A stretch of DNA of 64,000 bases from Spirochaetia bacterium (lineage in GTDB: Bacteria > Spirochaetota > Spirochaetia > JAFGXN01). Position 1 is the first letter of the stretch, and every line of letters starts with the position of its first letter. Below the pieces are notes generated by a model, which worked only from the letters and a program-made list of their open reading frames with translations, was not told the origin of the DNA and made no database searches. The stretch spans positions 7,467 through 71,466 of the forward strand of contig JAXEIF010000005.1 of assembly GCA_034120015.1 (NCBI GenBank), in the 5' to 3' direction. Below are positions 1,203 through 35,378 of the stretch, one piece after another. The position numbers were made by a program, and so were the translations under genes.

Positions 1203-2813
1203 TTAAAACCCGGAAATACTGGCTTTCATTTCTTTTATCAGGTTTTCGTTGGAGGCACCGATATCCAGCAGCAGATCCGACTGATTACGAATATGCGAAA
1301 GCTCGTTTTCCAGATTGATCATACTGTCATCGATTTCGGAAACAACATCTTTCATGACATTGACGGCGGAATTTTCTTCATCTATAATGCGGTTCATTTT
1401 TTCCGTCGACAAATCAACTTCCTTTTTCAAATCCACGACATGATAAACGGCGTTATTGATTTCCACCGTTCCTTTTGCCAGTTCGGACAATCCGTTGCTG
1501 ATTTCGTTCAATGAAGCGGAAATCGTCAGCAAATCCGTTCCGATTCCGCGGATTTTCGCAGACGATTCGGAGTTGACGGATACGGCATTTTTGACCGCGG
1601 CAATATTGGTTTTGATCATTTTGGAAATAATCTTTGAATTGCGCGAGGTTTCTTCGGAAAGATCGCGAATCGACTGGGCAACGATGGAAAATCCTTTTCC
1701 GGCTTCTCCGGCATGTACCGACTCAATAGACGCATTCATTGCCAACAGATTGGTTCTCTCCGAAATATCTTCGATGACGCCGACAATTTCGCTCATCCGA
1801 TTAATCGATTCGATAATTTCTTCAAAAATACGGGCCGACCCTTCCAACTGTTCGATTCCTGTTTTGACTGCTGTCGAAATTTCCATCAGCTGCCCCATTT
1901 TCTCGGTGGCATTACCGGACATTGTTTCAATCGAAGACGACATTTCGGTGATGGCTGCCGTTGTCTGTTCGAATGCGGCAGCCTGATTATTGATTCTGAT
2001 TTTAACGCCTTCATTTGCCTCCGCTATCTGATTTTGCAGACTGTAGATATCATTTATCCTGTCTTCAAGAGACTTCTGCCCCTGTCGGGTTTCGTTTTTA
2101 CAGCTTTCCATTGCCTGAAGACTTTCGGAAATAGCATGGGAGGTTTCCGTCAATCTGTTTCCTATATCGGCGCCGGAAGAGACTTTATCGACAATAGCCG
2201 AGATACGTTCAATATTCTGTCTCAGCTCTCCTTCTTTACCGACCAGCTCTCGATTCAACTCGTTATCGGCGCGCCAACCGACAAAGAACAGTACATCGGA
2301 AAAAACAAAAATACAGAAACTGCCGAAAAACATATCAAACATTAAAAAGAGATTGTTATTGGCAAGTGCATAAGGCAGCGAAATTCCGACAAGCGTCCCC
2401 AAAACAACGGCATACAGAAAGATATGAAACAGAATAATATTCCAACGCGATGTCAGATGCTGAACACCGAACTGAACCATCACACAGGCCATAAAGAGTC
2501 CGTATAAAACCGTATAATATGAAAAAGGCCAGACAATAATCCGGGAAACGGCCAGTGATCCGACTATAAAATTACACAGAAACCAACTGAATTTATAATA
2601 TCCGTTCCACAATAATACAGCACCGATAACTGCCGCTATGACAAGAATCAAATCCAGAACAAATAACCCGATATTCCCCGCCGAAAACATCTGAAACGCT
2701 GCCGGAATAAAGGCAAAAACGGTAGCAATAAAACAAACTTGTAAAATTTTGGCTTTTTTAATAATACTTACGGGTGCGTTTTGATAAACATCCGATATTA
2801 AACGAATTTTCAT
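1203..2813 (-). CDS. Methyl-accepting chemotaxis protein (536 aa), with a polytopic membrane N-terminus and a C-terminal MCP signalling domain.
   Basis: About 180 aa of hydrophobic helices precede conserved MCP signalling-domain repeats (…[28 protein letters not shown]…[13 protein letters not shown]…). It is a tandem paralog of the upstream partial MCP. Confidence 0.85.
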
Positions 2814-2876
2814 TTGAGCTCCGCTCCGAAAAAATAAAAGACCGATAATTTCTTATCGGCCTTTTATTTCAATAAA

Positions 2877-4076
2877 TTAATGTCTTCGTTTTTTTCCCCG
2901 AATCTTACGTTCCAGCATCGGAATTTCGATTTCGCCGCCCGAAGTTCCCGATTCCTCAATATTATCGGAAACCGCAGCAGCAGCAACCGCTTTTTTACCG
3001 TATTTTTTTTCGGATTTGCGGCGCTTTACGGCAGAAATGGCCAGCTCTGTCCAATAATAAAACGGAGCGGCAATAAAAATTGTGGAATAGGTTCCGCACA
3101 GGATACCGACGATAACGTTCAGCGCAAAGTTTTTGATATCACTTGTATCGGAAGCAAACACATACAACGCCACTACGGTAAACAGTGTTGTCAGCGAAGT
3201 AATAATGGTTCGGGAAAGTGTCTGCGTCACTGAAATATCGATACGGGAACGCAACGGGAGATTGGGATTCAACTCCATACTTTCACGGATACGGTCGAAA
3301 ACAACGATTGTGTCGTTCAGCGAATAACCGATAATGGTCAAAATCGCAGCGATTGTAACCGATGTAAATTCCACCTGAAAAACACCGATAAAAACCATCA
3401 TCATAATAACATCATGAAAAACGGCGACAATCGCTCCGACGGCAAAAGCCAGCTTAAAACGAAACCAGATATAAATCAGAACCAACGCCATCGCCGCAAC
3501 AACAACCCAAACCGCCGTCATGGTCAACGTTGCCGCACGCGACGGAGTCACACTGGCCTTTTGTTTGATTTCGACCGAATCGGGACCGAATTCCGATTCC
3601 ACAACTTTTTCCAGTTCGGAAGCGGCAATTTCGGCAAAATCCCCGTCACCGACAGCGGCCTGATAGGCCAGCCTCTGGAGAGAATTCAATTCGGCTGCCT
3701 CTTCCGCCGTCATTACGTCGGCGGGATCAATTCCCTCGGCTGCCTTTACCGGCTTACGCAGACTGACCTGAGATAACCGCACCCGATATTCCCGTGTCAG
3801 CGGATCCTGATTGGGAATTTCCTGAATCTGAGCTTCGTACGGAGCCAGCAGTCCGCGAATAACGGAAATGGTCTTTACTTCGCCGGCAGCGGCATTTTCT
3901 TCGGTAATGGCTTCAGGAAGTTTCACGGAAAACTGGATGCTCACACCGGGGTTGAAATCGACACCTGTATTCAATCCGCGGTGATAAAACACCGTAAACA
4001 ATAAACCGAAAACCATGCAAAAGAGAGACAACCCGGCAGTCAGAAACCGGTAACGGGTAAATCTAATTGTTTTCAT
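2877..4076 (-). CDS. secF: Protein translocase subunit SecF
   Basis: 399 aa. The C-terminal six-helix membrane domain has the typical SecF pattern (…ILTIIGYSLNDTIVVFDRIRE…) and the gene sits immediately downstream of, and overlapping, secD. Confidence 0.85.
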   Translation of the reverse strand: MKTIRFTRYRFLTAGLSLFCMVFGLLFTVFYHRGLNTGVDFNPGVSIQFSVKLPEAITEENAAAGEVKTISVIRGLLAPYEAQIQEIPNQDPLTREYRVRLSQVSLRKPVKAAEGIDPADVMTAEEAAELNSLQRLAYQAAVGDGDFAEIAASELEKVVESEFGPDSVEIKQKASVTPSRAATLTMTAVWVVVAAMALVLIYIWFRFKLAFAVGAIVAVFHDVIMMMVFIGVFQVEFTSVTIAAILTIIGYSLNDTIVVFDRIRESMELNPNLPLRSRIDISVTQTLSRTIITSLTTLFTVVALYVFASDTSDIKNFALNVIVGILCGTYSTIFIAAPFYYWTELAISAVKRRKSEKKYGKKAVAAAAVSDNIEESGTSGGEIEIPMLERKIRGKKRRH

Positions 4077-17547: not shown

Positions 17548-18066
17548 GTGAAAGTCAGAGGTTTCAATCATGTCGGTATTACCGTTAAAAATTTTGAAAA
17601 AGCCGTAAAATGGTATCACGAAGTTTTCGGTCTTTCTCTTATCTCCAAAGGCGGTTTGAATGCCGAAAGAATGAGCGCAATGAAAAAATTATATAACCTG
17701 CCGGACGGGGTGAGCGTCCGGTTCGGTTTTCTGATTGCGCCCGGAGGAGGTCTTGTTGAAATTTTCGAATTTTCGGAAACAGCACCGTTCGAACACTGCT
17801 GGAATCGTCCCGGAACACACCACTTTACACTCGACGTCAAAAATATTAAAAAGTGGTACAGAAAGCTGAGCGGACGGACCGATGTCGAAATTCTCAACGA
17901 GCCCCAACGCGATGACGGAGCCGATTGGTTTTTCTTTCGCGATCCCGACGGTAATCTCATCGAATTGATGGATTTACGCGCCAATTATTTTCCGATCAAA
18001 TACCTGAGCCGGCTGATAGGATTCTTTATGCGAAAAGGAAAATTTAAAAATGTCTACCGTTATTAA
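17548..18066 (+). CDS. VOC-family (glyoxalase/bleomycin-resistance/dioxygenase) protein
   Basis: 172 aa with the VOC N-terminus 'MKVRGFNHVGITVKNFEKAVKWYHEVFGL'. Confidence 0.75.
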   Translation: MKVRGFNHVGITVKNFEKAVKWYHEVFGLSLISKGGLNAERMSAMKKLYNLPDGVSVRFGFLIAPGGGLVEIFEFSETAPFEHCWNRPGTHHFTLDVKNIKKWYRKLSGRTDVEILNEPQRDDGADWFFFRDPDGNLIELMDLRANYFPIKYLSRLIGFFMRKGKFKNVYRY

Positions 18067-18089
18067 ATTATAATTTATAATTAAAATCA

Positions 18090-18100
18090 CCCCCCCCCCC
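18090..18100. repeat. Homopolymeric poly-C tract (11 nt) in the promoter region, 42 nt upstream of the GH16-like lipoprotein gene
   Basis: The sequence reads '…ttaaaatcaCCCCCCCCCCCgaattccaaaTATAATataataaatatttaaaGGAGtttggtATG'. The tract lies between an AT-rich upstream element and a TATAAT-like -10 hexamer. Confidence 0.9.
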
Positions 18101-18142
18101 GAATTCCAAATATAATATAATAAATATTTAAAGGAGTTTGGT

Positions 18143-20404
18143 ATGAAAAAATTTCTAACAGGGGGGATTATTTTTTTTCTCCTCTTCACAGGATGTCCGC
18201 AGCCGGAAACGGATTCGGATATTTTTACCGGCATTAAAGTTGCCGATTTTTTTGTTTTTGCGGAAGGAGATACTTCCGGTTCGGTAACAAAACCGTTCAC
18301 TTTTCAAACGGAAAAAAACGGAATGAAAATGACTGTTAAAGTTCCTTCATCAATGACCGTTACAGGAAATACAATTTCCGTCAACTGGTACAACGTCTAC
18401 TCTCCGACACAAGAAGCTGTTCTGACAGCAACACTCACAAAAGACGGTCAAAGCAAAGCCTTTCCTTTTACGGTCGTCTTAAAACGGACTCTCGGCTCGA
18501 TGCCCGTTTCCGAACTGATTCTCTTTGATGAAAAACTGGATACTATCGATGCCGTTACAAGCAGTTTTACACTCTCGCAGACAACCGGCAAGTACGGAGA
18601 AACAGTGTCATGGAATTTCACCACGGAATCGCCAGATCTTGTTTACGACGAATCGACAGGTCGGGTCTCGGTTACCCTGACAAACGATCGTCAAAGCGCA
18701 ACTGCCGAAGCTGTTTTTACAAAAGAAGGCTTTGAGTCTGTCACAAAGACTTTTGATCTGATCATTTTGACATCAAGCGAAGGCTATTCATGGACACCCG
18801 ATTCCTTAACCGACTATATTACCCTCGGTAACAGCGGAAAAGATTACCTGTGGCGTATTCGCGATAACTTTACCCTAAAAACATCATTCGATGCCGAATC
18901 CGGTCACGGCGCGGGAACCGTTACATGGACATCTTCCGATGACGCCGCCATTTCCGTTAACGGCAGTACGGCAACCGTTACCCGCGGTTTGGACAGCCAA
19001 AAGGTAACTCTGACAGCAACATTTCAGGAAACAGATTCCGAGAAAAAATCAAAAGATCTTACAATTGATGTTCTTGTCATGGAAACAATTCCGGCAACTC
19101 TGACCGTTGACGGAAAAACCTATAAACTGGTCTATTTTGACGCTTTCGACAATCAAGCCATTCTGGAAGCCAACTGGGATATAGGCAATCCGGGACACAA
19201 TGCGCCGGAAATCGGCAACAACAATCTCGACCCGACCTACTTCAAAGCTCCTGACGGACAGTTCCACGGATACGCCGATGAATGGCAAAAACAACCGACA
19301 TGGTCACCGAAAGCCACTTACATCGAAGACGGAAAAGCACGTCTGCTGGCTAAATACGACACGGAAGCCCAAATCGGCGTTGCCGGAGCACTTCACTCCA
19401 AACGGCTTTTCCCTCACGGCGTTTTTCACGCCAGATGGACTCAGAAACGTGACAGCGATTCCCACTGGGACGCTTACTGGCTCGACACCAATCAGCCCTT
19501 CTCCAAAGCCTACGGCGAAAAACTCCTCAATCTCCCGAAAGCCCTTCGCAAACAGGTGGCAGAGTCATCCCGCGGTGAGGGGTTCTTCGATAACAAAGCT
19601 TCAAACATTCAGCACGGAAATACTGCTGTATCGAATCCGATTCTCTATCAGTCTCAATACACTCTAAAAACAGACAGCTCTATACCCGACTGGGGATTTA
19701 CCGCTGCAAAACGGGTAGACAAAATCGGACGATGGTACAACGGCGAGCAGCGCTACGAACTGGACGCTTACGAGTGGGTCAACGGTACCGGACAGAATAA
19801 CGTGATCCACACCTGGCACTGGATGAGAGGTTTCCCGGGAAACCAAACAGGTTCTCTGAGTGGCGTAGACAAAAAGTGGTATGTCGGAGACGTTGCACGC
19901 AACCAGGGGAAAGTAGGCGGATACTCCACTACCTATTCGGCAGCCGTCAATAAAACACCCTCTTTTACTCTCACAGCGCTGTACAATGACAGCAAAATTG
20001 CTTTTTACTATAACGCTCACGGTGAAAATAATTTTTCTTCTCCCAAATATTCCCGCTCCAAACAGACCGGAGATATGTTTGACCCCAACATAACGGAAGA
20101 AGATAATAGACAACCGTGGCCGAACGACGAGTTTAATCCCGTTCAGGTGAAATTTACGGTTGAACCGGGGCAGTGGGACGATAATTTTTATCAAATTACA
20201 ACAGCTTTCCGAAATAACCCTGAAAATTACGATGCTATGGATATCGAATACTTCGCCTACTACGCAGCGGAAGACGATATGCTCAATCCGAACATCGGAG
20301 ACGAAAACAGCGGTGTTCCTTTAACGGCGATTACCGATATGGATAATGTCACAGAATTCGCTGAAACACAAGCCAAACTGACAAAGGAATGGGTACAGAA
20401 ATGA
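18143..20404 (+). CDS. Surface lipoprotein with three N-terminal Ig-like repeats and a C-terminal GH16-like (concanavalin-fold glycoside hydrolase) domain
   Basis: Lipoprotein signal 'FLLFTGC'. Three repeats of about 90 aa are each predicted by the sequence to bind nothing recognisable but share an ending pattern (…FPFTVVL / …FDLIIL / …TIDVLV). The C-terminal domain has 'WDIGNPG', 'HSKRLFPHGVF', 'HWDAYWLDTNQPFSKAYGEK' (compare GH16 'WPAFWML') and 'YELDAYEW' (ExDxxE catalytic motif). Confidence 0.65.
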   Translation: MKKFLTGGIIFFLLFTGCPQPETDSDIFTGIKVADFFVFAEGDTSGSVTKPFTFQTEKNGMKMTVKVPSSMTVTGNTISVNWYNVYSPTQEAVLTATLTKDGQSKAFPFTVVLKRTLGSMPVSELILFDEKLDTIDAVTSSFTLSQTTGKYGETVSWNFTTESPDLVYDESTGRVSVTLTNDRQSATAEAVFTKEGFESVTKTFDLIILTSSEGYSWTPDSLTDYITLGNSGKDYLWRIRDNFTLKTSFDAESGHGAGTVTWTSSDDAAISVNGSTATVTRGLDSQKVTLTATFQETDSEKKSKDLTIDVLVMETIPATLTVDGKTYKLVYFDAFDNQAILEANWDIGNPGHNAPEIGNNNLDPTYFKAPDGQFHGYADEWQKQPTWSPKATYIEDGKARLLAKYDTEAQIGVAGALHSKRLFPHGVFHARWTQKRDSDSHWDAYWLDTNQPFSKAYGEKLLNLPKALRKQVAESSRGEGFFDNKASNIQHGNTAVSNPILYQSQYTLKTDSSIPDWGFTAAKRVDKIGRWYNGEQRYELDAYEWVNGTGQNNVIHTWHWMRGFPGNQTGSLSGVDKKWYVGDVARNQGKVGGYSTTYSAAVNKTPSFTLTALYNDSKIAFYYNAHGENNFSSPKYSRSKQTGDMFDPNITEEDNRQPWPNDEFNPVQVKFTVEPGQWDDNFYQITTAFRNNPENYDAMDIEYFAYYAAEDDMLNPNIGDENSGVPLTAITDMDNVTEFAETQAKLTKEWVQK

Positions 20405-21969
20405 AATTTTACAGAACTGTTTTAACATCAATGGGAATGGGGGCAGCGGCTTTGGCCGTTGCCGGCTGTCCCGAAGAACGCAAACCGATTTATCCCGACC
20501 AACTGACAATGCCGGGAACCGGAAACGACCAAAAGGCGGTCAAAACCGCATCCGAATACGGTATCAGCGAAAAGCCGAACGTTATTTTTATTCTTCTTGA
20601 CGATGCCGGCCACGGCGATATCAGCTGTTACGGGCAGAAGAATTTTCAAACGCCCAATATTGACAGTCTGGCAAAGAACGGTATCCGCTTTGTCAACAAT
20701 TACGCCGGTGCCCCGGTCAGTGCCTCATCCCGCTGTGCACTGTTTACCGGTAAGACGACCGGACACAGTGCCATTCGCGGTAATCTCGAACTGGGCGCCG
20801 GAGTCGGGTTGGATCCCGCAACCGTCACCAAAGAAGGCCAGGAAGGACTCCCCGATTCGGAATATACTCTGGCACAGTTATTCAAAGAGAACGGCTACAA
20901 CACCGCCCTGGTCGGAAAATGGGGTATGGGAATGCCGATAAACAACAGCTCTCCACTGAACAAAGGATTTGATCATTATTACGGACACCTTTGCCAGCGG
21001 ATGGCGCATTCCTACTTTCCCGATCACGTTTGGGAAGACGATTCAAAGGTTGAATTCAAGGACAACACAGGGATGACCGGAAATGTGTGGCTTCACGATG
21101 AATTCGAAAAGAAAACAGCCGAATATCTGACAACATACCTCGCGGAGTCCACACCGTTTTTTCTGTTTTGCACCTACACCATTCCGCACGGCGCTCTGCA
21201 AATCCCGGACGGGAAACTCAACGATGCGAATTATCATCCTTACACAACCGCCGAATGGTGGAGTAAAGCTTCGGATGATATGAAACGGTATGCGATTATG
21301 ATGCACCGCGTGGATCTGACTGTCGGAAAGATTATCGATCAGGTTGAGGCAGCAGGAAAACTGAACAATACCCTGATTCTTTTTTCCAGTGACAACGGAC
21401 CTGCCGACGAATACGGCGCCGATCCGAATTTTTTTGAAAGCGCCGGACGTTTCGGCAATGAACGGCTTCGCGGCATTAAACGCGCTTTGTACGAAGGAGG
21501 TGTTAAAGTTCCGTTTATCGCATCATGGAACGGAACAATCAAACCTGCCGAAAGCCTGCATATCATGGCCGGGTATGACATTATGGCGACGATGGCTCAA
21601 ATATTGGGAACCGATTTATCGCAAAAAACAAAAACCGACGGACTCTCTTTTCTTCCGACATTAATGGGCGATACCGTCAACCAGAAAGAACACCCCTATC
21701 TTTATTGGGAATTTGTCGGCAATACGGCTTCGGAAGGCGGCGGCCCCCGGCAGGGAGTCCGCAGCGGTGACTGGAAAGCGATTTTGAACTTCGGAGTAAC
21801 AACTTCGGCCAAAGCAGGCGAAGGGAATATCGAACTTTACCATTTGGGCGATGATCCCGGAGAGGCTGATAATGTCGCCACTCTTTACCCCAATATTATT
21901 GCGTCGATGAAACAAATTATGATAAACGCTCATGACAACAATGATAAATTCCCTCAAATAAAAAAATAA
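20401..21969 (+). CDS. Sulfatase-family (alkaline-phosphatase superfamily) lipoprotein with a non-canonical active-site motif
   Basis: Lipobox 'LAVAGC'. 'NVIFILLDDAGHGDISCYGQ…TPNIDSLAKNGIRFVNNYAGAPVSASSRCALFTGK' aligns with the sulfatase signature, but C-x-P-x-R is replaced by S-A-S-S-R. A start at 20401 gives an ATGA overlap with the upstream stop; the ORF track starts at 20389. Confidence 0.8.
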   Translation: MKFYRTVLTSMGMGAAALAVAGCPEERKPIYPDQLTMPGTGNDQKAVKTASEYGISEKPNVIFILLDDAGHGDISCYGQKNFQTPNIDSLAKNGIRFVNNYAGAPVSASSRCALFTGKTTGHSAIRGNLELGAGVGLDPATVTKEGQEGLPDSEYTLAQLFKENGYNTALVGKWGMGMPINNSSPLNKGFDHYYGHLCQRMAHSYFPDHVWEDDSKVEFKDNTGMTGNVWLHDEFEKKTAEYLTTYLAESTPFFLFCTYTIPHGALQIPDGKLNDANYHPYTTAEWWSKASDDMKRYAIMMHRVDLTVGKIIDQVEAAGKLNNTLILFSSDNGPADEYGADPNFFESAGRFGNERLRGIKRALYEGGVKVPFIASWNGTIKPAESLHIMAGYDIMATMAQILGTDLSQKTKTDGLSFLPTLMGDTVNQKEHPYLYWEFVGNTASEGGGPRQGVRSGDWKAILNFGVTTSAKAGEGNIELYHLGDDPGEADNVATLYPNIIASMKQIMINAHDNNDKFPQIKK

Positions 21970-21984
21970 TAAAAGGAGAAATCT

Positions 21985-23571
21985 ATGAAAAAGAAATCAT
22001 TACTGTTTTTAGGCGTATTAACCGCTTCGGCTCTGTTTTTCGGATGTCCCGGACCGGAAGAATCGGCAGACGCCACCTCTCTGACATTGACGACACCGCA
22101 GGCCTACCTGGCCCCCGGACTGACAATGACCGTCACGGCTACTGTCAAACCGGAAGGATTTCCGGTCACCTTTTCCTCCGACAATATGGGCGTTGCCTCC
22201 GTCAGCAATAAAGGGGTTGTATCGGGCGTTTCCGAAGGAACGGCAACAGTTACAGCCGCTGCCGGAACAAAAAAAGCGAGCGCAACCGTGACCGTTGTGC
22301 CCTATACGTCCGTTTCGATAGCGCCTCTTCCTGAAGACGATTACACTATTCCCAATACAACGTCAAAACAGCTGACACTGAAGTGGGAACCTTCCGGTGT
22401 TTCAGTTGCTCCCGAGATTATCAAATGGGTCAGTTCCAATCCGGACGCCTTCCCGGTCGATAAAAACGGACTGGTCACCTCGAACAGCGATACGGAATCA
22501 GCTGAAATTCATGCCGAAATTTACGACGGACTGATGAAAACAAAAGCCGTTACCGTCAGCGGGGACGAAGCGCCTCCCGTTCCGGCACCGGTTGTCGAAA
22601 ATTTGCGGGCATTCACCGGTGATGCCCGTTACACCATTTACTGGGATGCAGTAGAAAATGCAACGGAATATAAACTTTATTGCACAACTGACACCGCCAA
22701 ACCGGCAGAAGCAACTGCCACATTAACAGAAACATCTCATCATGTTACATCTGCAACAAATGGAGAAACAATCAACATTTGGGTCGAAGCAGTCGTAGCG
22801 GGCACCGTTCAGATCAATGACCCGGCACACACAACTGTAACGGTCGGATACAACGGAAACAGCAATGCATCGATTACAGTCGATTCGCAAACCTACACAC
22901 TCGACCGCGAAGTCGATTTCCGCGAAGGAACTTTCGAACAGAAATGGCCGACATCGACAATACTTTACAGTGTCGATTCAGAGACAGGTATTTTAACGCA
23001 AAAAGGCGGCAGCGGTTCTTCCGGTAGCAGTTATATGGATGAGGCTGACGGAGCCGGAGCCAATTCACGCTTAATCTGGACTCCGCCCGCAGATGTGCTT
23101 CCGATCTCCGAATACAGTTATATCGAGGTTGAACTGAAAACTTCACAGCCGTCGGGCACCCCTGGATTCTGGGTCGTTCTGAACCACAACAATATCATCA
23201 GTTATGAACTTGTTCATTATAACAACAATAATCCGAACGGATGGTTTCTGTCTTACGGTGGTGAATGGCGCAGTAACGGAAAAACACAAAAATTTCATGC
23301 CGGATCAGGAATTTCACTCCCTTCTCAAGGCGATATTCATAAATTCGGAATTTTATTTCCCGATAAAACACCTTCAAAAATACGAATCTATTCAGATCGA
23401 ACAACGGCCTACGTTAATAAGAATAGTTTTGACGGCGGAAATGCTGCGTCGGCACCTCAATCATGGACAGAGAATATACCGACCTATTTCGAATTTATCT
23501 TCGGAGCAGCCGACTGTCCGAACTATACGGCAGAAATTTCCAAAATCCGCTACTATAAAGCGTCCAACTAA
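21985..23571 (+). CDS. Surface lipoprotein with Big_2-like Ig domains and a C-terminal beta-sandwich domain of unknown function
   Basis: Lipobox 'LFFGC'. Big_2-like segments are present (…GVVSGVSEGTATVTAAAGTKKASATVTV…). No catalytic motif was recognised. Confidence 0.55.
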   Translation: MKKKSLLFLGVLTASALFFGCPGPEESADATSLTLTTPQAYLAPGLTMTVTATVKPEGFPVTFSSDNMGVASVSNKGVVSGVSEGTATVTAAAGTKKASATVTVVPYTSVSIAPLPEDDYTIPNTTSKQLTLKWEPSGVSVAPEIIKWVSSNPDAFPVDKNGLVTSNSDTESAEIHAEIYDGLMKTKAVTVSGDEAPPVPAPVVENLRAFTGDARYTIYWDAVENATEYKLYCTTDTAKPAEATATLTETSHHVTSATNGETINIWVEAVVAGTVQINDPAHTTVTVGYNGNSNASITVDSQTYTLDREVDFREGTFEQKWPTSTILYSVDSETGILTQKGGSGSSGSSYMDEADGAGANSRLIWTPPADVLPISEYSYIEVELKTSQPSGTPGFWVVLNHNNIISYELVHYNNNNPNGWFLSYGGEWRSNGKTQKFHAGSGISLPSQGDIHKFGILFPDKTPSKIRIYSDRTTAYVNKNSFDGGNAASAPQSWTENIPTYFEFIFGAADCPNYTAEISKIRYYKASN

Positions 23572-26074: not shown

Positions 26075-28477
26075 TTAATCATTCACATCATTCCCGATTG
26101 CCGGGTACTTACCGCCTGTATCCCATGCATAGAAGGCAAAAAATTCGGCTACCGTTGAATCGGGCTTCTCTTCGGTCAATGTGTCTCTGGCATCATAAAT
26201 CAAATCGTGATTATTATTCCATTGTCCCAGTTCGGACGAATATTTCACCTGAATCGGAGCCCATTCATCGGCAGGGAACGGCGTCGGACACTCGGCATTA
26301 CCGAAACAACCTTTATAAAAAACTTCACGGGCAGACGAAGTCGGAATATCGTTAAAATTCCAATTCCAATCGGACGGGAAATTATACATTCGAACCAGTC
26401 CGTCGGAAGTCACCAGCATTGCCAAATAAAACCAATCCTGACTGCGAGCCTGTCCGGCATCCTGATAAGAATGATAAATCCGCCCTACAGCTCCTTCCTT
26501 ATCATTTTTTCTGAAATCATTTGTTATATAATAATTTCCGTCACTACCGCCGCCGTAAGTCGCCCCCTGACTCATACGGTCGTCCCACCCCGGGTATCCG
26601 CCGTACCACGACCACATATGCGTAACCATCCACTGTGTATTATCGTTTGAAACCCACTCATACATATCATATTCGTAGACCTGTTGCCCGTTCAATCCGC
26701 GGGCGGCTGCATTGGAATGCAAATTATTCTCATTGTTGAATTTGTATTTTGCAATTTGATTTATCCCCGCAGCGGCTCCCGGCGGCATAAACAGCGTTTT
26801 GTTGCCGTATTCTTTCGAAAACGGATTATTGCTTTCCGCCCACCAGGCATCCCAATGGCTGGCGTTTTTACTGTCCCGTCCGGAGAAATCATGACGGATT
26901 TTAGTAACAAACAATCCACTCGGAAACTGCCGCTTCGAGTGTACGGCTCCCGCCAATCCGTATCCGGATTCCTGATTCGCTCCCTTATTTGGGATAAAGC
27001 TATCGCCGGCCGGTTCGGTCGTACTGTCTGTTGTTGTCGAAATATTTTTGTTGGGGATCGTTTTATCGTAAAAAACATCAATCCAAAGGCAACCGTCCTT
27101 AATACGAACGGCCTTAGGAGACCAGTACGGCTGTTTATAGCGGTCATTTTCGTACCCCCGAATGCCGTCCGGTCCGAACGTTTTCGGACCGCTCAATTCA
27201 AGTCCCATATTACCGATCTCAGGACGCTGAATTCCGGGGTTTCCGATATCCCAATCGGCCTCCAGTGTCTCCATAGAGTCAAACGGATCGTAATATGTCA
27301 GACTGAGAACCTTTCCTTCGACAGCGACTTTTGCGGGAATCATGCCGGGTGCGGGCGGCGTAACGGTTTCAATGATATCTCCGTTTTCGTCGAACTCAAT
27401 CACTTCGATTGATTCGTCTAAATAGTAAAATGCAACATGATCGACAGTAACGGTAACAGACTGATTTGCATTGTTATCTTCCGTTCCGAAATAGAGCCAA
27501 TAAGTTTCTTGAGAAGGAATCTCGAAATTATCGGGATTTGTAACCGAATAGATCGAAGTAGCGTCAAAAAAAGACATCAATAGATTTTTTTCAAAAATCA
27601 TCCCGTAAGTATGATACGTATTCGGTTCAACTGAAAAACCTTTTGGACTTCGACCTCCTTTCAATCTGGCTTTGATCGAAGCATCCCAGTTGTTAAAAAA
27701 TTCATTGGCCCATCCGCGTTTTTGATTTTGATTAATTGGATTTGTATCAGTTTGAGCAGCATCCACTGTTCCCAAACCGCAACCGATAGCCGTATTTAAT
27801 CCGTTATTACTGAGAGATGCGGTTATTTCCACATATCCTAAAGTTTTGCCGGCCTCTACTCCCGGATAAAGTGCCTCGGCAATAGTTAACGGATAGCTGA
27901 CGCCGCCCGTCACTGCCGCATTACCGGGCGTTTTAAAAGTCAGCTCTCCCTTTTCTGAGTCTACTTCAAAAACGGCGTCATTGGGACAATCTTGATGTTG
28001 CGTCCATTCTTTTCCCACACCGGTTTTCGAAAAATCAAACAGTGAAGCAATACGATAGCCTTTTCCGTTACGATGAACCACTTCCTGAACACCTTCCGGA
28101 ACCTCGACCGAGCACGTTGCCTGTGCTTTCGAATTTGCTTTACTGATTGCCTTCAACTCAACTGTTCCGGCAGTATTGCCGGCAACAAGAACAGTCACAT
28201 TGCCTTTTTGAACCACATCCACAATCTCTTTGTCGGACGATTGCAGGATAAATCCCTTTTCTGCGGCGGTCGTGTTTACAGTAACCGCAATGCGGGAAGC
28301 AGTATTTTTCCATAACGTCATTTTGCTCTGACCGAAAGAAATTTCAACCGCAACATCCTTATTACCGCCACTTCCGCCTCCTTGATCCACGGACGGACCG
28401 GGAGGTGGACATCCTACCGAAAATAATACCGCAAGAATAAAAAGCAAACCTTTCTTCATAAACTTTCTCCTCTCCAT
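26075..28477 (-). CDS. GH16-like glycoside hydrolase lipoprotein with an N-terminal Ig-like/Big domain and a carbohydrate-binding-like module (tandem duplicate 1)
   Basis: 800 aa with lipobox 'FSVGC' and a Gly-rich linker. It has the same C-terminal motif set (WDIGNPGIQRPEIGNMG, HSKRQFPSGLF, HWDAWWAESNNPFSKEYG, YEYDMYEWV). The N-terminal 350 aa are highly similar to those of the 28597 gene. Confidence 0.65.
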   Translation of the reverse strand: MERRKFMKKGLLFILAVLFSVGCPPPGPSVDQGGGSGGNKDVAVEISFGQSKMTLWKNTASRIAVTVNTTAAEKGFILQSSDKEIVDVVQKGNVTVLVAGNTAGTVELKAISKANSKAQATCSVEVPEGVQEVVHRNGKGYRIASLFDFSKTGVGKEWTQHQDCPNDAVFEVDSEKGELTFKTPGNAAVTGGVSYPLTIAEALYPGVEAGKTLGYVEITASLSNNGLNTAIGCGLGTVDAAQTDTNPINQNQKRGWANEFFNNWDASIKARLKGGRSPKGFSVEPNTYHTYGMIFEKNLLMSFFDATSIYSVTNPDNFEIPSQETYWLYFGTEDNNANQSVTVTVDHVAFYYLDESIEVIEFDENGDIIETVTPPAPGMIPAKVAVEGKVLSLTYYDPFDSMETLEADWDIGNPGIQRPEIGNMGLELSGPKTFGPDGIRGYENDRYKQPYWSPKAVRIKDGCLWIDVFYDKTIPNKNISTTTDSTTEPAGDSFIPNKGANQESGYGLAGAVHSKRQFPSGLFVTKIRHDFSGRDSKNASHWDAWWAESNNPFSKEYGNKTLFMPPGAAAGINQIAKYKFNNENNLHSNAAARGLNGQQVYEYDMYEWVSNDNTQWMVTHMWSWYGGYPGWDDRMSQGATYGGGSDGNYYITNDFRKNDKEGAVGRIYHSYQDAGQARSQDWFYLAMLVTSDGLVRMYNFPSDWNWNFNDIPTSSAREVFYKGCFGNAECPTPFPADEWAPIQVKYSSELGQWNNNHDLIYDARDTLTEEKPDSTVAEFFAFYAWDTGGKYPAIGNDVND

Positions 28478-28596: not shown

Positions 28597-30912
28597 TTAT
28601 TCAGCTACATCAGTCTCCACCGATGTATACTTGCCCGTATCCCAGGCATAGAACGCAAAGAATTCGGCATGCATGATATCGGGATTCTCCGGGGTCAGCC
28701 GATCTTTTTCATTATAAATAAGGTTATGCATATTCTGCCAGTCTCCCAGCTCGGATGAATATTTGACCTGAATCGGCGCATAGGTGTCGGCATTCATGAA
28801 CGGTGCCGTCACACCGGAGTTTCCGAAAGCACCTGTCGTTTTGTTCATCTGACTCTTTCGTGTTCCGGACTGGGAAAAATCCCAATTCCAGGTTTTCGGG
28901 AAGTTCCACATCACCACCTTTTCGGGGGTGACCAGCATCGCCAGATAAAACCAGTCTCCCGAAGAAGCCTGTCCGCCATCCAAATAGTTATTGCTGAATG
29001 TTCCGGAAATTCCGTTATTGTCTCTTCCTCTCAGATTATCCGAAGTCGACCAGTAATTGTTATCGCCCCCGCGGGTCTCATAGCGGTCTTCCCAACCCGG
29101 GTATCCGCCGTACCAGGCCCAGGAATGAAGCACCTGCCACTGACTCTGATTGTTACCGACCCATTCATACATATCGTACTCATATACCTGCTGACCGTTT
29201 AACCCGCGATCGGAGGTCGGAACATCGGTATACTCATCGGAAGTCGTTATATTTTTTGCCCGACGGATTCTGCTTTCCCCTCCTTCCGGCATAAACAGCT
29301 CTTTTTCGCCGTAAGCACGGCTGAACGGGTTGTTGCTTTCGGCCCACCAGGCATCCCAATGTGCATTGGTTTTTGCTGAACGATTTCCCCATGAATGTTT
29401 AATTTTGGTGATAAACAGTCCGCTCGGAAACTGTCGCTTGGAATGGATAGCGCCGGCCAAGCCGTATCCTGTTGTATCATATGTGCCACCACTTCCGGGG
29501 ACCCATCCTTCCTGACCATTGTTCACATTTTTATTCTGAATCGTCTTATCAAAGAAGACTTTTATTAACAATTCTCCGTTTTGAATATCGACCGCTTTCG
29601 GCGACCAGTAAGGCTGCTTGTAACGGTCACCGGAATAACCTTTAATCCCGTCATCAAAAGTCACCAATGTCGGAGATGCGATTCCCTCATTTCCGATTTC
29701 GGGACGTTCAATCCCCGGATTACCGATATCCCAGTTTTCCTTCAAAACATCCATACTGTCAAACGAGTCGTAGTGAGTCAGTTTTAAGATTTTTCCGTCA
29801 ACCGCAATCCGTGCCGGAATCATACCGGGGGCAGGAGGCGTAACCGTTTCGATAATGTTACCTTCCTCATCAACCTGAATCACTTCCATCGAGTCATCAT
29901 AGTAATAGAAGGCAACCGTATCCACAGAAACCGTAACAGTCGTGCTGCTGTTACCTGTTTTTCCGAAATAAAGATAATAAACACTCCCGTCATTGGGAAT
30001 CGCATAGTCTCCCGCTGCTTTACTGTTGTTTTCAATTCCGTCCGTATAGGCTGTCAAATTGGATCCGTCGAGAAAGGAAATCCCGAAAGCATGGTCTTTT
30101 CCTGTTTCAATCGTATAGGCATTTCCCCTACTGTTTGCCAGACGGGATTTCCAAACAGAATCACTGGTATCAATGAATTCATTCGCCCAACCGCGGGAAT
30201 TGTTATCTCCGGCCATATCCGCACTGCCGAGTCCCATTGCAACCCCCGTATCGGCACCGGCGCTCACCTGAGCAATCACTTCGGCATAAGCAACGTTCTT
30301 GCCAGACAGTGCCAGTCCGGCAACAAGACCTTCCTGCAGATCAAGCGAATAATTGGCTTCGGTGGAATCGGCGCCGGAAATAGTCGTAATCTTTAAAGAT
30401 CCGTCGCTGAATTCGCGGGAAAATTTGGCCTCAGTTCCGTCTTTATATGTCCATGTTCCTTTCAAACCTGTTGTTTCAAAATCAAACAGAGAAAGCAGAC
30501 GAAAGCCTTTTCCTCCACGATGTACAACTTCCTGAATGCCGTCAGGTACAGTAACCGTACAGGTTGCTTTTGCCGACTTATCCGCTTTACTGACAGCCGT
30601 AAGAGTCACCGTACCGGGCAGATTCCTGGCTGTAATCACAGGATTTCCATCCGTCTGTAAAGAAATTTTAACAATATCCTCATTCGAAGAGGTTAGCGTA
30701 TATCCTTTTTCCGATGCTTTGGTTACAACATTGACAGCCAACCGCGAAGAAGTATTCTTCCATAGTATCATTTCAGCCTGACTGAAAGAAATTTGAACTT
30801 CTGGAGCTGTGCTGTTCCCGCCACCATTCCCGTCTCCTCCCGGTGTAGGTGTAGGTGGAGGACATCCCACTGTCAGCAATGTTGCCAAAAATAAAAAACA
30901 AAGCTTTTTCAT
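28597..30912 (-). CDS. GH16-like glycoside hydrolase lipoprotein (tandem duplicate 2)
   Basis: 771 aa with lipobox 'LTVGC', a Pro/Gly linker, and the motifs WDIGNPGIERPEIGNEG, HSKRQFPSGLF, HWDAWWAESNNPFSRAYGEK and YEYDMYEWV. Confidence 0.65.
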   Translation of the reverse strand: MKKLCFLFLATLLTVGCPPPTPTPGGDGNGGGNSTAPEVQISFSQAEMILWKNTSSRLAVNVVTKASEKGYTLTSSNEDIVKISLQTDGNPVITARNLPGTVTLTAVSKADKSAKATCTVTVPDGIQEVVHRGGKGFRLLSLFDFETTGLKGTWTYKDGTEAKFSREFSDGSLKITTISGADSTEANYSLDLQEGLVAGLALSGKNVAYAEVIAQVSAGADTGVAMGLGSADMAGDNNSRGWANEFIDTSDSVWKSRLANSRGNAYTIETGKDHAFGISFLDGSNLTAYTDGIENNSKAAGDYAIPNDGSVYYLYFGKTGNSSTTVTVSVDTVAFYYYDDSMEVIQVDEEGNIIETVTPPAPGMIPARIAVDGKILKLTHYDSFDSMDVLKENWDIGNPGIERPEIGNEGIASPTLVTFDDGIKGYSGDRYKQPYWSPKAVDIQNGELLIKVFFDKTIQNKNVNNGQEGWVPGSGGTYDTTGYGLAGAIHSKRQFPSGLFITKIKHSWGNRSAKTNAHWDAWWAESNNPFSRAYGEKELFMPEGGESRIRRAKNITTSDEYTDVPTSDRGLNGQQVYEYDMYEWVGNNQSQWQVLHSWAWYGGYPGWEDRYETRGGDNNYWSTSDNLRGRDNNGISGTFSNNYLDGGQASSGDWFYLAMLVTPEKVVMWNFPKTWNWDFSQSGTRKSQMNKTTGAFGNSGVTAPFMNADTYAPIQVKYSSELGDWQNMHNLIYNEKDRLTPENPDIMHAEFFAFYAWDTGKYTSVETDVAE

Positions 30913-31068
30913 ACAATTAATCTCCTTTTATTTAAATTATATTAACATTATAAAAGAAGTTTTCGCCGTTTGCAAACAAAAAAAAATTTTTATTTTCCAA
31001 ATCTCATTTTTCGCACATGTGAAATTTAATACTTGTATTTTACAATAGCAACTATTAAAATACATTTT

Positions 31069-32934
31069 ATGAAAATACGTACATTATTTTTAATTTCATC
31101 ACTGCTTTTATCGTCGTGCCTGTCCGTCGACGTTCAGGAGTCTGTTTCCCGCACCGACGATACGGACTATCTTCCGCCGATTGATCTGACGGCAGCCGAA
31201 TCGGCACCACGGGCGCTGATCCCTTTTCCGCGTCAAACGACATGGGGTACCGGAGAATGGATTCTCGAACGATGCACCGTGACCCGCAAAATCGAAACAC
31301 TATCGTTCAGTTCCTCTCCCGAAGCCTATTTACTGACCGTTGCCGACGGCCGCATCGAAATCAAAGCCAACGGGGAAAAAGGGCTTCGATACGCGGATTT
31401 GACCCTGAATCAGCTGACCGAAAACGGCCGCAAGCCGGTGCCGGCCTGCACTATCCGCGACTACCCGGCCTTCTCCGTCCGCGGTTTTCACCACGATACC
31501 GGAAGGAACTTTCAAAGCATCGCCTCTCTGAAAGAACAAATCCGCCGTCTGGCCGCTTACAAACTCAACACATTCCACTGGCACATTACCGACAATCCGG
31601 GCTGGCGGGTCGAATGCAAAAAATACCCTGTTTTAAACGATCCGAAAACAATGTACCGCAGTACCGAATTCTATACTTACGACGAAATCCGCGATCTGAT
31701 TTCTTTCAGCAACGATCTCGGCGTTCAGGTGATTGTGGAACTGGACATGCCCGGACACAGCAAATTCTTTCCGAAAGCGTTCGGTTTTTCGATGGGATCG
31801 CAAAAAGGAACGCAAATCTGTCTCGATCTGATTCAGGAATTCTGCGATGAAATTCCGGTCGAAATGGCACCGGTTATTCACGTCGGAGCCGACGAAGTCC
31901 GTGCTCCCGTTATCGACGAATTTATGCCGTTGGTAGAAGCCAAACTGAAAGAAAACGGACGTACAGGTATGGTCTGGAATCCGGGAATCAAATCCTCTCC
32001 CGATGTCATCGAGCACACCTGGTTTGAAAAGGCTCAACAGCCCGGTTACCGCAACATCGATTCGAGCGGGCTTTACACCAATACTCTCGATTTTTTCAAT
32101 GTGATTCAGGCCATTTATTTCAAACAACCGTGCGAAGCGCCTACCGGTTCCGATACGGAACTGGGAGCGATTGTCTGTAACTGGAACGATGTAGCGATAT
32201 CCGACGAAAAAGATGTTTTGCTGAACAACCCGGTTTACAGTTCGGGAATCACGGCAGCCGAGATTTTTTGGAACGGAAATCCGACCGGCAGCCAGCGTTA
32301 CAAACAGATCCTGCCTCCGTCCGGTTCGGACGCGCTTCGCGCTTTTGCCGAGTTCGAAAACCGTCTGATAGCCCATAAGAATCTTTACTTCGGAGATGTC
32401 GGTGCCGGGTTTATTTACCCCAGACAGTCCGATCAGGTTTGGCAGCTGACAGGGCCAGACGGTACGACGGTCGAAGCCAGAGGTGTTTCGCTGCTTTTAA
32501 GCGATTATTTTCCGAATGCCCGAAAACGGCAGGCAGCGGTCTGCCGTTTGGAAATCGAAAGCGAAACCGACCGCGAAGTGCTGCTTCATGCCGGGTTTGA
32601 TGTACCCGGCCGTGCACACCGTTTTTACGGCGGTGTTCCCCCGAAAGGAAAATGGGATCGCTACGGCAGTACGATTACTTTAAACGGGAATCCCGTCGAG
32701 CCGCCCCGGTGGCAACAGCCGGGCGCCTACCGGCACGATATTGTCCAGACATGGGATCACCCGGTACAGGAAGTCCCCTGGACCGCCGAAGAACTCTACT
32801 GGCGCCGCGAACCGGTGCGGGTTCAACTGAAAAAAGGTGTCAATGTGATTGAAGTCAGGGCTGTCAAAAACTCACCCAAACAGATTTGGATGACAGCTCT
32901 CTGGCTTGAAGATGTTGGGGAATCGGTAAAATGA
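31069..32934 (+). CDS. GH20 beta-N-acetylhexosaminidase, lipoprotein
   Basis: 'RGFHHDTGRNFQSIASLKEQIRRLAAYKLNTFHWHITDNPGWRVE' and the catalytic-region motif 'HVGADEV' (H-x-G-G-D-E type). Lipobox 'LLSSC' if the start is at the MKIRT codon at 31069. Confidence 0.85.
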   Translation: MKIRTLFLISSLLLSSCLSVDVQESVSRTDDTDYLPPIDLTAAESAPRALIPFPRQTTWGTGEWILERCTVTRKIETLSFSSSPEAYLLTVADGRIEIKANGEKGLRYADLTLNQLTENGRKPVPACTIRDYPAFSVRGFHHDTGRNFQSIASLKEQIRRLAAYKLNTFHWHITDNPGWRVECKKYPVLNDPKTMYRSTEFYTYDEIRDLISFSNDLGVQVIVELDMPGHSKFFPKAFGFSMGSQKGTQICLDLIQEFCDEIPVEMAPVIHVGADEVRAPVIDEFMPLVEAKLKENGRTGMVWNPGIKSSPDVIEHTWFEKAQQPGYRNIDSSGLYTNTLDFFNVIQAIYFKQPCEAPTGSDTELGAIVCNWNDVAISDEKDVLLNNPVYSSGITAAEIFWNGNPTGSQRYKQILPPSGSDALRAFAEFENRLIAHKNLYFGDVGAGFIYPRQSDQVWQLTGPDGTTVEARGVSLLLSDYFPNARKRQAAVCRLEIESETDREVLLHAGFDVPGRAHRFYGGVPPKGKWDRYGSTITLNGNPVEPPRWQQPGAYRHDIVQTWDHPVQEVPWTAEELYWRREPVRVQLKKGVNVIEVRAVKNSPKQIWMTALWLEDVGESVK

Positions 32935-35378
32935 CAGACAGATCCCGCATTCTTTTCAGTCTGCTGATATTTCTCTCATCTCTTCCGACAGATGCATCGG
33001 CAGCCGAACCGGGAAACAGAGTTCTTTTCTACACTTCGCCCGCAGAAAACTGGGAACAGGAATCTCTGCCGATCGGTAACGGCTGGATGGGCGCCTCCCT
33101 CTTCGGAGGTATCGAAAACGAACGTATTGTTCTGAACGAAAAAACATTATGGGAAGGCGGTCCGGGAGAATGGGACGGATACGGGAAACCCGATCCGAAT
33201 AAAGGCGCTTTTGCCCTGCCGGAAATTCGTAAAGCGGTTGAAGAAGGAAAATACGGAGAGGCGCACCGTCTTGCCGAAAAATATCTGACCGGCAATGGCA
33301 CGGGAAAAGGCGCTTATCAGCCGCTCGGAACGCTGGATATCCGTTTTCCGGGAATTAAACGGCAGAAAGGCTCTTATATCCGCAAACTCGATACCGGAAA
33401 CGCGGTACACACCGTTTCTTTCTCGCAAAACGGGGTCGAATATACGCGGAACGCTTTTGCCTCTTACCCGGATAAAAGCATCGTCTTTTCGTTCTCTGCG
33501 GACCGTCCGCAATCGGTTGCTTTCAACCTGCAGTGGGAAACCGTCAACGAAACAAAAAACTATTACGACACCTATAAAAACGAATTCGTCTGCCTCAACC
33601 CGAATGTCCGCACAGGCCGCACCGAAACAGTCGCCGTCGAACGTCTCGGCGACGATACGGCCAAAATGACGGTCGAAGGTATTTTAAACAACAACGGCAT
33701 GAAATATGCCGCCGTCATTTACATAAAAGCCGTCAACGGCACGGTCGGTACCGACGGAAAATCGGCGGCCGTCCGCGGAGCCGATCGGGCCGTTCTCTTT
33801 TTTGCCGCCGCCACCGATTACGCCAACGAATATCCCCGCTACACAAGCGGCCGGAATCCGTTGCCGGTCGCCGACGCCTTTGCCCGCGAAGCGTTTGCGA
33901 AAGGCGAAACCCGGGTTTACCGAAATCACATCCGCGATTATACCGGACTGTTTGAACGCACCGCACTGCGTTTGACGGACAGCGATGAAACGTTGACGGA
34001 TGTTCCGACCGACAAACGGCTGAAACAGTTCCGCAGAAACCGCGACCCGATGTTTTTGGAACTGCTTTTCAACTACGGAAAGTATCTGCTGATTGCCTCC
34101 TCCCGCGAAGGATCGCTTCCGCTCAACCTGCAGGGCGTCTGGAACGCATATACGGCACCTCCCTGGAGCAGCGATTACCATACCAATATCAATCTTCAGA
34201 TGGCTTACTGGCCGGCGGAACCGCTTCATTTGGGAGAAATTCACAAACCGCTGCTCGACTACATTCCGACACTGGTTCAACCGGGAGAAATCACCGCCCG
34301 TCACTATTACGGAACCGGCGGATGGGTCTGCCACACCAGCAATAACCCTTTCGGAGAAACGCAGCCCGGATGGGGAATTGTCTGGGGACATTTCCCGGGC
34401 GCGGCCGCCTGGCTCTGCCGTCATTTGTGGGATCACTACCTTTATACGCAGGATACCGCTTTTCTGAAAGAGGTCTATCCGACGGTCAAAGGAGCCGCAC
34501 AATTTTGGGCCGATTGGCTGACAACAGATAAAAACGGCAATCTGATCTCCTGCCCCTCTTATTCGCCGGAACACGGTACGATTTCCGCCGGTGCAACAAT
34601 GGATTTTGAAATCGCTTTCGAAATTCTGAACACCGCAATTACCGCTTCCGAAATCCTCGGTACAGACAATACCGAACGGGAAATATGGCGGAGCATTGTC
34701 AGCCGGATTCCGCCGCTGAAAATCGGACGATGGGGACAGCTTCAGGAATGGACCGAAGATATCGACTCAAAAACAGATAAACACCGCCATATCTCGCATC
34801 TCTATGCTCTGCATCCGGGAACACAAATCTCTCCGATTACGACACCCGAGACGGCGAAAGCTGCCGCCGTCACACTGAAAGCCCGCGGTGACAAAGCCAC
34901 CGGATGGTCGATGGCGTGGAAAATGAATTTTTATGCCCGTTTGGGAGACGGAGATCATTCGTATAAGCTGCTGCGGAATTTCGTACGGTTCACCGAACGA
35001 TCCGGAGTAGCTCTTTCGGGAGGAGGCTTTTACCGGAATTTGTGGGATGCCCATCCGCCGTTTCAGATCGACGGGAATTTCGGCATTGTTTCCGCTTTTA
35101 TCGAATGGGTTTTGCAAAGTCACAACGGAGAAATACATCTTCTGCCTGCTCTTCCTTCCGCAATCAAAAACGGCCGGTTCGACGGTTTTAAAGCCGCCGG
35201 CGGGTTCACGGTTTCCGCTTCCTGGAAAAAAGGAAAAATGAACGAAGCCGTTATCCGATCCGATGCCGGGAAACCGTTAACGGTTCGCTACGCCGGCAAA
35301 ACGGTCGATATCGATCTGAAACGGGGCGAATCGGTTCGCCTCAACGGCAATCTGGAGATTCTTTCTTCGGACCGATAA
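32931..35378 (+). CDS. GH95-family alpha-L-fucosidase
   Basis: 815 aa. The N-terminus 'ESLPIGNGWMGASLFGGIENERIVLNEKTLWEGGP' and the 'PLNLQGVWN' motif are characteristic of GH95. Its start is coupled to the GH20 stop by an ATGA overlap. Confidence 0.85.
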   Translation: MTDRSRILFSLLIFLSSLPTDASAAEPGNRVLFYTSPAENWEQESLPIGNGWMGASLFGGIENERIVLNEKTLWEGGPGEWDGYGKPDPNKGAFALPEIRKAVEEGKYGEAHRLAEKYLTGNGTGKGAYQPLGTLDIRFPGIKRQKGSYIRKLDTGNAVHTVSFSQNGVEYTRNAFASYPDKSIVFSFSADRPQSVAFNLQWETVNETKNYYDTYKNEFVCLNPNVRTGRTETVAVERLGDDTAKMTVEGILNNNGMKYAAVIYIKAVNGTVGTDGKSAAVRGADRAVLFFAAATDYANEYPRYTSGRNPLPVADAFAREAFAKGETRVYRNHIRDYTGLFERTALRLTDSDETLTDVPTDKRLKQFRRNRDPMFLELLFNYGKYLLIASSREGSLPLNLQGVWNAYTAPPWSSDYHTNINLQMAYWPAEPLHLGEIHKPLLDYIPTLVQPGEITARHYYGTGGWVCHTSNNPFGETQPGWGIVWGHFPGAAAWLCRHLWDHYLYTQDTAFLKEVYPTVKGAAQFWADWLTTDKNGNLISCPSYSPEHGTISAGATMDFEIAFEILNTAITASEILGTDNTEREIWRSIVSRIPPLKIGRWGQLQEWTEDIDSKTDKHRHISHLYALHPGTQISPITTPETAKAAAVTLKARGDKATGWSMAWKMNFYARLGDGDHSYKLLRNFVRFTERSGVALSGGGFYRNLWDAHPPFQIDGNFGIVSAFIEWVLQSHNGEIHLLPALPSAIKNGRFDGFKAAGGFTVSASWKKGKMNEAVIRSDAGKPLTVRYAGKTVDIDLKRGESVRLNGNLEILSSDR

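Follow-up and report, generated by a model that had tools for sequence, protein, structure and literature searches.

A hypermutable poly-C tract in the predicted promoter of a GH16-like lipoprotein gene of an uncultured spirochaete: a candidate switch or rheostat of expression

Does a run of cytosines in front of a gene for a putative surface enzyme alter the expression of that gene in an uncultured spirochaete? The question was raised by an earlier note on 64,000 nucleotides (nt) of Spirochaetia bacterium DNA (assembly GCA_034120015.1, contig JAXEIF010000005.1, positions 7,467 to 71,466 of the forward strand), the whole of which is called here the window. An uninterrupted run of 11 C residues (C11; 18090-18100, plus strand), with CA just before it (18088-18089), lies in an intergenic stretch of 76 nt that follows the stop codon (18064-18066) of a glyoxalase/VOC gene and precedes a gene for a 753-residue lipoprotein. 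The coordinates given earlier agreed with ours: 10 nt separate the end of the tract from a TATAAT hexamer (18111-18116) and 42 nt separate it from the ATG at 18143. A second TATAAT (18116-18121) overlaps the first, and the upstream element described as AT-rich consists purely of A and T from 18060 to 18087. The intergenic order is TAA ATTATAATTTATAATTAAAAT CA CCCCCCCCCCC GAATTCCAAA TATAATATAATA AATATTTAAAGGAGTTTGGT ATG. We found that the C tract is hypermutable between near-clonal genomes, and on balance it probably works as a functional promoter-geometry switch or rheostat.

The tract is an anomaly in its surroundings. The runs of G or C in the 64 kb comprise four C6, one G6 (18161-18166, the only run of at least six G residues, 61 nt 3' of the tract), none of 7-10 and the single C11, which bears out the claim that this is the sole long G/C homopolymer of the window, there being no other longer than six. 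The number of runs of at least 11 C expected in the window is about 0.014-0.017, whether computed from base composition or with a first-order Markov model. Across related loci totalling 155 kb, one long homopolymer was found per locus, always at the lipoprotein promoter site.

The comparison of tract lengths across isolates or metagenome bins, which the earlier note had put forward as a check, gave a positive answer. Metagenome contigs of the same species, whose labels suggest a pig gut origin, were gathered by exact-protein look-up from several studies and assemblers; their tract lengths are those of the assembled consensus and not of reads, short-read lengths above about 12 being imprecise (notably C15 and C19), and some contigs are possibly one sample assembled twice. 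The tract was internal, with both flanks present, in nine contigs besides the window. The alleles were C10 with two copies of TATAA (L003) or three (L005, L010), C12 with three copies (L004) or three plus TA (L006, L007, L008), C15 and C19 each with three (L009 and L012, respectively) and AA followed by C12 with three (L014), next to CA followed by C11 with two copies in the window. No difference was seen across the 2262-nt lipoprotein gene among L004-L012, which include C10, C12, C15 and C19, and the seven of them that have 1000 nt upstream showed 0-2 differences there. Altogether at least eight complete alleles, including those of the window, L014 and L003, occur in DNA at least 99.4% identical. 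The TATAA-repeat alleles (two copies, three, three plus TA) likewise differ between contigs with identical flanks. Since the repeats vary next to a gene without a single difference, the C tract and the TATAA repeat must mutate far faster than the flanking DNA.

Several contigs also break off at the repeats. The Logan contig L001 begins with C13, and its gene is identical to that of the window, yet the window has CA and C11; L026 begins with C9, L011 begins inside the TATAA repeat, and L024 of a sister species begins with T14. Contig ends at repeats are expected where reads of mixed lengths split the assembly graph, and these four contigs, together with the disagreement between the window and L001, suggest mixed tract lengths within a sample. 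As controls, two runs within the coding sequence, T8 and G6, were of constant length among contigs, and pairs of contigs with the same private allele from different pipelines agreed in length (T16 in both L027 and L028, T14 in both L029 and L030). The proposal of a slippage-prone tract of varying length in the regulatory region of a surface-protein gene is hence strongly supported, with C9 or more up to C19 in near-identical strains. The locus shows several of the features by which contingency loci are recognized: a repeat out of keeping with its surroundings, length differences between near-clonal genomes, a position in the promoter and a gene for a putative surface protein.

Orthologous promoters helped to define what the tract replaced. 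The sister species, with flanks about 75% identical in nucleotides to the window and strains 98.5-99.1% identical to one another upstream, has no C tract and carries a T tract at the orthologous site. This T tract is 11, 13, 14, 16, 17, 18, 23 or 25 nt long, and outside it almost all contigs have one and the same intergenic sequence. It is followed directly by ATTTGATA, 17 nt and TATAAT (TTGATA-17-TATAAT, in agreement with the consensus at 11 of 12 positions), at 28 nt from the ATG. A third species (L015), with a protein 84% and flanks 87.5% identical, lacks a homopolymer and reads AATTAAAAT TCTCGCCACTCCTCCAG TTTTCAAT TATAAT, that is TCGCCA-17-TATAAT; according to the alignment it keeps the A/T upstream block. 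Within the window itself, the paralogue at 28597-30912 (minus strand) is preceded by T9-GT-TTGCAA-17-TATAAT at 30947-30986, the same layout as in the sister-species ortholog. TATAAT is invariant in the three-species alignment and stands 26-28 nt before the ATG, and this invariance at a conserved distance places the promoter of the gene family here. The TTAAAA of the window (18081-18086) aligns with the sister-species -35, TTGATA, and the TCGCCA of L015 aligns with the C tract. From these alignments we concluded that the C tract is apparently a homogenised derivative of a C-rich -35/spacer segment, and that hypermutable homopolymers of different composition appear to have arisen at orthologous promoters.

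Two further features of these orthologous regions were noted. In L015, CCACTCC and GGAGTGG, the segments that match the C tract and the G6 run, are likewise complementary, possibly by chance, the folding z-scores being weak. In the sister species (L016, about 1452-1500), CCTCCTT in the promoter spacer is perfectly complementary to AAGGAG of the ribosome-binding site and TTCGCA to TGCGAA at the start codon, which corresponds either to an 18-pair hairpin in a read-through RNA or to an operator-like palindrome over the -10.

The part of the earlier proposal that was not supported concerns the means by which tract length might act, namely a change of the -35/-10 spacing. A consensus promoter scan found no -35/-10 pair in the window. 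When artificial tract lengths were scanned with position weights, TTAAAA and TATAAT came within range only at C5-C8, lengths present in none of 13 contigs; the observed tracts, C9 or more up to C19, give spacers of 21-30 nt. A 17-nt spacer counted from TATAAT at 18111 puts the -35 position at CACCCC (18088-18093), and the orthologous -35 of L015 also falls under the tract. By the alignment, the C tract thus covers the ancestral -35 together with the half of the spacer nearest to it, and the -10 is conserved. With a start about 7 nt after TATAAT, the A/T block would lie at about -36 to -63 at C11, which is the usual position of an UP element. The block is a candidate for an UP-like element or the site of an activator, and its distance to the -10 would depend on the tract. 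A promoter located entirely after the tract, with TTCCAA and either TAAATA or TATTTA, was considered and rejected: its hexamers are poor and its start would hit the ribosome-binding site. Two other roles of the tract were also dismissed. An antisense open reading frame (17974-18300), in which the tract would be coding, has a low-complexity translation and is broken or shortened at other tract lengths, and an intrinsic terminator of the upstream gene would require a hairpin, none being present before the tract; nor is a terminator predicted there.

In the explanation that we propose, the lipoprotein gene, a sulfatase gene and a second, Big_2-domain lipoprotein gene make up a unit whose core promoter contains the C tract, a repeat that is hypermutable through strand slippage. 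Replication slippage would alter the length of the C tract as well as the number of TATAA copies at the -10, and both changes would shift the distance and the helical phase between the A/T block and the -10. Transcription of the unit would thereby be raised or lowered, heritably but reversibly, in different cells of a population, so that the display of a glycan-degrading enzyme at the surface would be under the control of a contingency locus or rheostat. The presence of the tract, its extreme outlier character, its hypervariability between near-clonal genomes and its place over the -35/spacer position are observed; the start site, the effect of length on expression and the reversible, selected character of the switching are what we infer.

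A number of observations weigh against a functional switch or rheostat. The lengths of 10-19 do not cluster at one optimum, and neutral drift would look alike. The distances between the A/T block and the -10 (20, 22, 23, 24, 25 and 29 nt, few alleles in all) show no 10-11-nt periodicity. Lacking a -35, the promoter may be weak whatever the tract length, and read-through from upstream genes is possible, no terminator being predicted between the glyoxalase and lipoprotein genes. Finally, the consensus homopolymer lengths are imprecise, C15 and C19 especially, and duplicate assemblies of one sample may be among the contigs.

A broader version of the switch or rheostat reading may be offered tentatively, as a possibility that we hold with less confidence. 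The different homopolymers, poly-C over the -35 and the sister-species poly-T flanking it, would have evolved independently and, together with the variable -10 pentamer, would make up a two-dimensional mutational rheostat for a surface endo-glycanase/sulfatase unit, and the mosaic alleles of the enzyme domain in the sister species would indicate that phages or antibodies drive selection on an enzyme by which a commensal acquires nutrients. The mosaic was seen in L016, L027, L029 and L031 (locus at about 1950-3750): the first 450-900 nt or so of the sister-species lipoprotein gene, depending on the pair, are 95-100% identical, and later blocks, in the GH16-like part, are 52-70% identical. Synonymous divergence is 0.35-0.75 in the mosaic part versus 0.014-0.035 in upstream genes, and the ratio of nonsynonymous to synonymous divergence is about 0.25-0.3. 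This pattern indicates old alleles that were apparently exchanged by recombination, and mosaic old alleles are typical of surface molecules under frequency-dependent selection.

Among the competing explanations, the one that survives best, and that we regard as rather unlikely, is a neutral mutational hotspot. A C-rich -35/spacer segment would have become a homopolymer by a few substitutions and would slip with no effect on expression, the unit being expressed by read-through or from a length-insensitive promoter made of the -10 only. Any G/C run of nine or more is expected to slip, and the wide spread of lengths (10, 11, 12, 15, 19) with no evident optimum or helical periodicity, as well as the absence of a predicted terminator between the glyoxalase and lipoprotein genes, fit this explanation. 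It accounts poorly for the confinement of long homopolymers to this site, with no other G/C run above six in 64 kb and one long homopolymer per locus in 155 kb, or for the different hypervariable homopolymer (T11-T25) that the sister species has at the orthologous promoter. Moreover, the tract overlies the -35 of a conserved promoter, where a change of length is unlikely to be silent, and the adjacent -10 repeat varies too.

We consider improbable a strict on/off spacer switch of the porA/tp0126 type, with TTAAAA as the -35, TATAAT as the -10, an on state at a spacer of 16-18 nt and all sampled genomes off. TTAAAA does align with the sister-species TTGATA, and TTAAAA-17-TATAAT at C6 would be a good promoter. 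Contingency tracts normally lie within 1-2 units of the on/off boundary, however, and here none of the 13 contigs has C5-C8 and C19 is at least 11 contraction steps away from the on state. The model has to assume that every population sampled is off, by as many as 11 steps or more; it is possible but unlikely. Also, in the closest tract-free species the functional -35 (TCGCCA) is located inside the segment that became the tract and not upstream of it. Mostly-off populations do have a precedent in tprE/G/J of Treponema pallidum, which are permissive only at tracts of eight or fewer (PMC7864442).

More doubtful still is an action at the RNA level, in which the tract, as part of a transcript that arises from an A/T-block promoter or by read-through, would pair in the 5' leader with the ribosome-binding region and G6 or serve as a C-rich loading site for Rho. 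TATAAT-like hexamers are present upstream of the tract (18069-18074 and 18076-18081), and in a predicted fold CCGAAUUCC forms pairs with GGAGUUUGG, as does C6 with the sole G6, 61 nt downstream. The tract and the GAAUUCC that follows it are able to pair with the ribosome-binding region and G6, and C-rich segments in the other two species pair with downstream G-rich segments. The folds were nevertheless no better than those of shuffled sequences (z-scores of -1.0 to -1.3), and both the predicted energy and the accessibility of the ribosome site stayed constant from C8 to C21, so that under this model the observed variation would be of no consequence. The position of the conserved promoter, over the tract or downstream of it, speaks against the model too, and a search against Rfam gave no family match, by which a known RNA element was rejected.

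A sequencing or assembly artefact (two-colour poly-G artefacts or homopolymer miscalls) is very improbable since, even if short reads are prone to errors in homopolymers longer than about 12 and some contigs stop at the tract, it is internal with unique flanks in the window and nine contigs from several projects and assemblers, T8 and G6 of the same contigs are invariant, paired assemblies agree and the differences reach 9 nt.

The gene under the putative control was described earlier as the first GH16-like lipoprotein gene, and our results agree with this description: it encodes a lipoprotein that carries a GH16-like domain, and paralogues are present in the window (Table 1). The protein, identical to MDY3938897.1 from a 'Spirochaetia bacterium' metagenome-assembled genome (MAG), starts with MKKFLTGGIIFFLLFTGC, a signal peptide followed by the lipobox cysteine, and is by this token predicted to be surface-exposed. 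Cys18 and the ExDxxE motif (E539, D541, E544; ELDAYE 539-544) are invariant in 24 homologues. Pfam recognized only an Ig-like domain (aBig_2), and no GH16 match was obtained in Pfam or in a PDB sequence search. In the AlphaFold model (mean predicted local distance difference test score 64.8) the N-terminal Ig-like domains are good and the C-terminal half is poor, with long stretches below 50. The top Foldseek matches of this low-confidence model were GH16 enzymes, namely kappa-carrageenase, laminarinases and mucin O-glycanases, with target-normalised template modelling scores of 0.5-0.67. The label 'GH16-like', which depends on the model, is reasonable but not proven. Neither Tpr/MOSP nor OmpW homology was found by Pfam, and the fold matches were to GH16, so this is not a tpr gene. 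A scan of JGI metagenomes with a profile of the lipoprotein gave no relative.

Two terminator-like hairpins with T runs, CCGGAAACGGATTCGG with ATATTTTT and CGGCATTAAAGTTGCCG with ATTTTTTT, were noticed at 18203-18254, within the first 110 nt of the lipoprotein coding sequence, 0.6 being expected. At the upstream gene, the glyoxalase reading frame ends with CGT TAT TAA in the window and with CGT TAA in other strains; a single substitution inside the A/T block (18061-18066) makes the glyoxalase of the window one residue longer.

The sulfatase gene is probably in one transcription unit with the lipoprotein gene, and the gene of the Big_2-domain lipoprotein is probably the last of the unit. Judging from the predicted products, the sulfatase, GH20, GH95 and GH16-like genes suggest a region devoted to the degradation of host (mucin-type) or sulfated glycans.

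Table 1. Features of the locus in the window and of the sister-species tract.
Feature	Position	Strand	Remarks
Glyoxalase/VOC gene	17548-18066		Upstream neighbour of the tract
A/T-only upstream block	18060-18087	+	Spans the glyoxalase stop codon (18064-18066); contains TTAAAA (18081-18086)
Poly-C tract, hypermutable homopolymer	18090-18100	+	C11 after CA
(TATAA)2-TA repeat, second variable repeat	18111-18122	+	Two overlapping TATAAT -10 hexamers
Ribosome-binding site and start codon	18133-18145	+	GGAG 18133-18136; ATG 18143-18145
G6 run	18161-18166	+	Codons 7-8 (Gly-Gly) of the lipoprotein gene; complementary to the C tract, relevance uncertain
753-residue lipoprotein gene	18143-20404	+	Ig-like domains and C-terminal GH16-like domain; lipobox ...LFTGC
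Sulfatase gene	20437-21969	+	PF00884, E=1e-47; starts 32 nt after the lipoprotein gene
528-residue Big_2-domain lipoprotein gene	21985-23571	+	...LFFGCP
Two GH16-like-domain paralogues	26075-28477 and 28597-30912	-	32-33% identity
GH20 (beta-hexosaminidase-like) and GH95 (fucosidase-like) genes	31033-35378		Adjoin the GH16-like paralogues
Sister-species T tract	L002 3884-3896; L016-L032 about 1423-1450

Repeat-driven phase variation is textbook knowledge for mucosal pathogens such as Neisseria, Haemophilus, Helicobacter, Bordetella and T. pallidum. To our knowledge, there is little record of it in uncultured gut commensals or carbohydrate-active enzymes, and for nutrient-acquisition enzymes of commensals phase variation is otherwise known mainly from invertible promoters. 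A limited literature search found no report of repeat-driven phase variation in gut spirochaetes or in GH16/sulfatase genes. Added interest comes from the variable repeat that forms the -10, from the difference in tract base, C or T, between sister species and from the association, in a gut commensal that is uncultured, with a unit for glycan degradation. If expression is governed by tract length, single cells would differ in displaying a glycan-cutting enzyme together with its partner sulfatase; host glycans are the substrate suggested by the GH20 and GH95 genes nearby. Such heterogeneity, if real, would affect mucin and sulfated-glycan foraging, exposure to phages and immunoglobulin A, and the reading of metagenomic 'gene presence' as function. 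The locus offers a ready test case, many alleles being already available in public pig-gut data.

How does this arrangement compare with known systems? The earlier note likened the tract to those of the tpr genes of T. pallidum, said to stand in exactly the same position. The analogy is a loose one: a G/C homopolymer in a spirochaete promoter is shared, but the positions in tp0126 and tprL differ and the gene here is not a tpr. The poly-G tracts of tprE/G/J, tprL and tp0126 are of 7-11 or more residues, vary within and between isolates and give length-dependent reporter activity in Escherichia coli (PMC7864442). The tp0126 tract lies between the -35 and the -10, and that of tprL lies over part of the -10 region (PMC7864442). 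Common to both cases are the spirochaete host and the G/C homopolymers in promoters of putative surface proteins; in the window, by contrast, the tract overlies the -35, the gene is neither tpr nor an OmpW homologue, and the source is an uncultured gut Spirochaetia MAG and not a pathogen. The locus also departs from spacer switches of the porA/tp0126 type, there being no flanking hexamer pair and the spacers being 21-30 nt and not 16-18.

In sabA of Helicobacter pylori, a T tract adjoining the -35 acts as a rheostat, its length shifting the alignment of an UP-like element with the core promoter and giving multiphasic output (PMC4081817). This layout equals that of the sister-species T11-T25, directly upstream of the -35, and of the T9 of the window paralogue. 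The tract of the window differs in being a poly-C that overlaps the -35 instead of flanking it, and the CT repeat in the coding sequence of sabA is not present here.

The C-stretches of the Bordetella fim genes comprise 10-15 and 13-18 residues, up to C19-22 in B. bronchiseptica, vary among close strains and influence transcript abundance (PMC1891110). Like the window, fim2, fim3 and fimX have a long C tract in the promoter of a surface structure, and the order of A/T block, C tract and -10 parallels the BvgA layout. There, the C-stretch separates the site of the activator, BvgA, from the -10. Unlike in Bordetella, no fim-box or known activator is present here, and the product is a GH-like lipoprotein, not a fimbrial subunit.

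According to two papers, the poly-C tract of opc encompasses the -35 (PMC7864442) and its length dictates Opc expression (PMC3447861, citing Sarkari 1994). The window shares with opc (opcA) of Neisseria meningitidis a coding-strand poly-C tract in a surface-protein promoter, over the -35 position, with lengths in the same range, and judged by position it has the opc-type layout, a poly-C at -35 and no separate -35 hexamer. An optimum of 12-13 C residues has reportedly been found in opc. The two systems differ in that organism and gene are unrelated and that in the window the TATAA repeat forms the -10, the range of lengths is wider (10-19) and the effect of length is a predicted one. By analogy, the layout of the window thus resembles opc, Bordetella fim or a sabA-like rheostat more closely than it does porA or tp0126.

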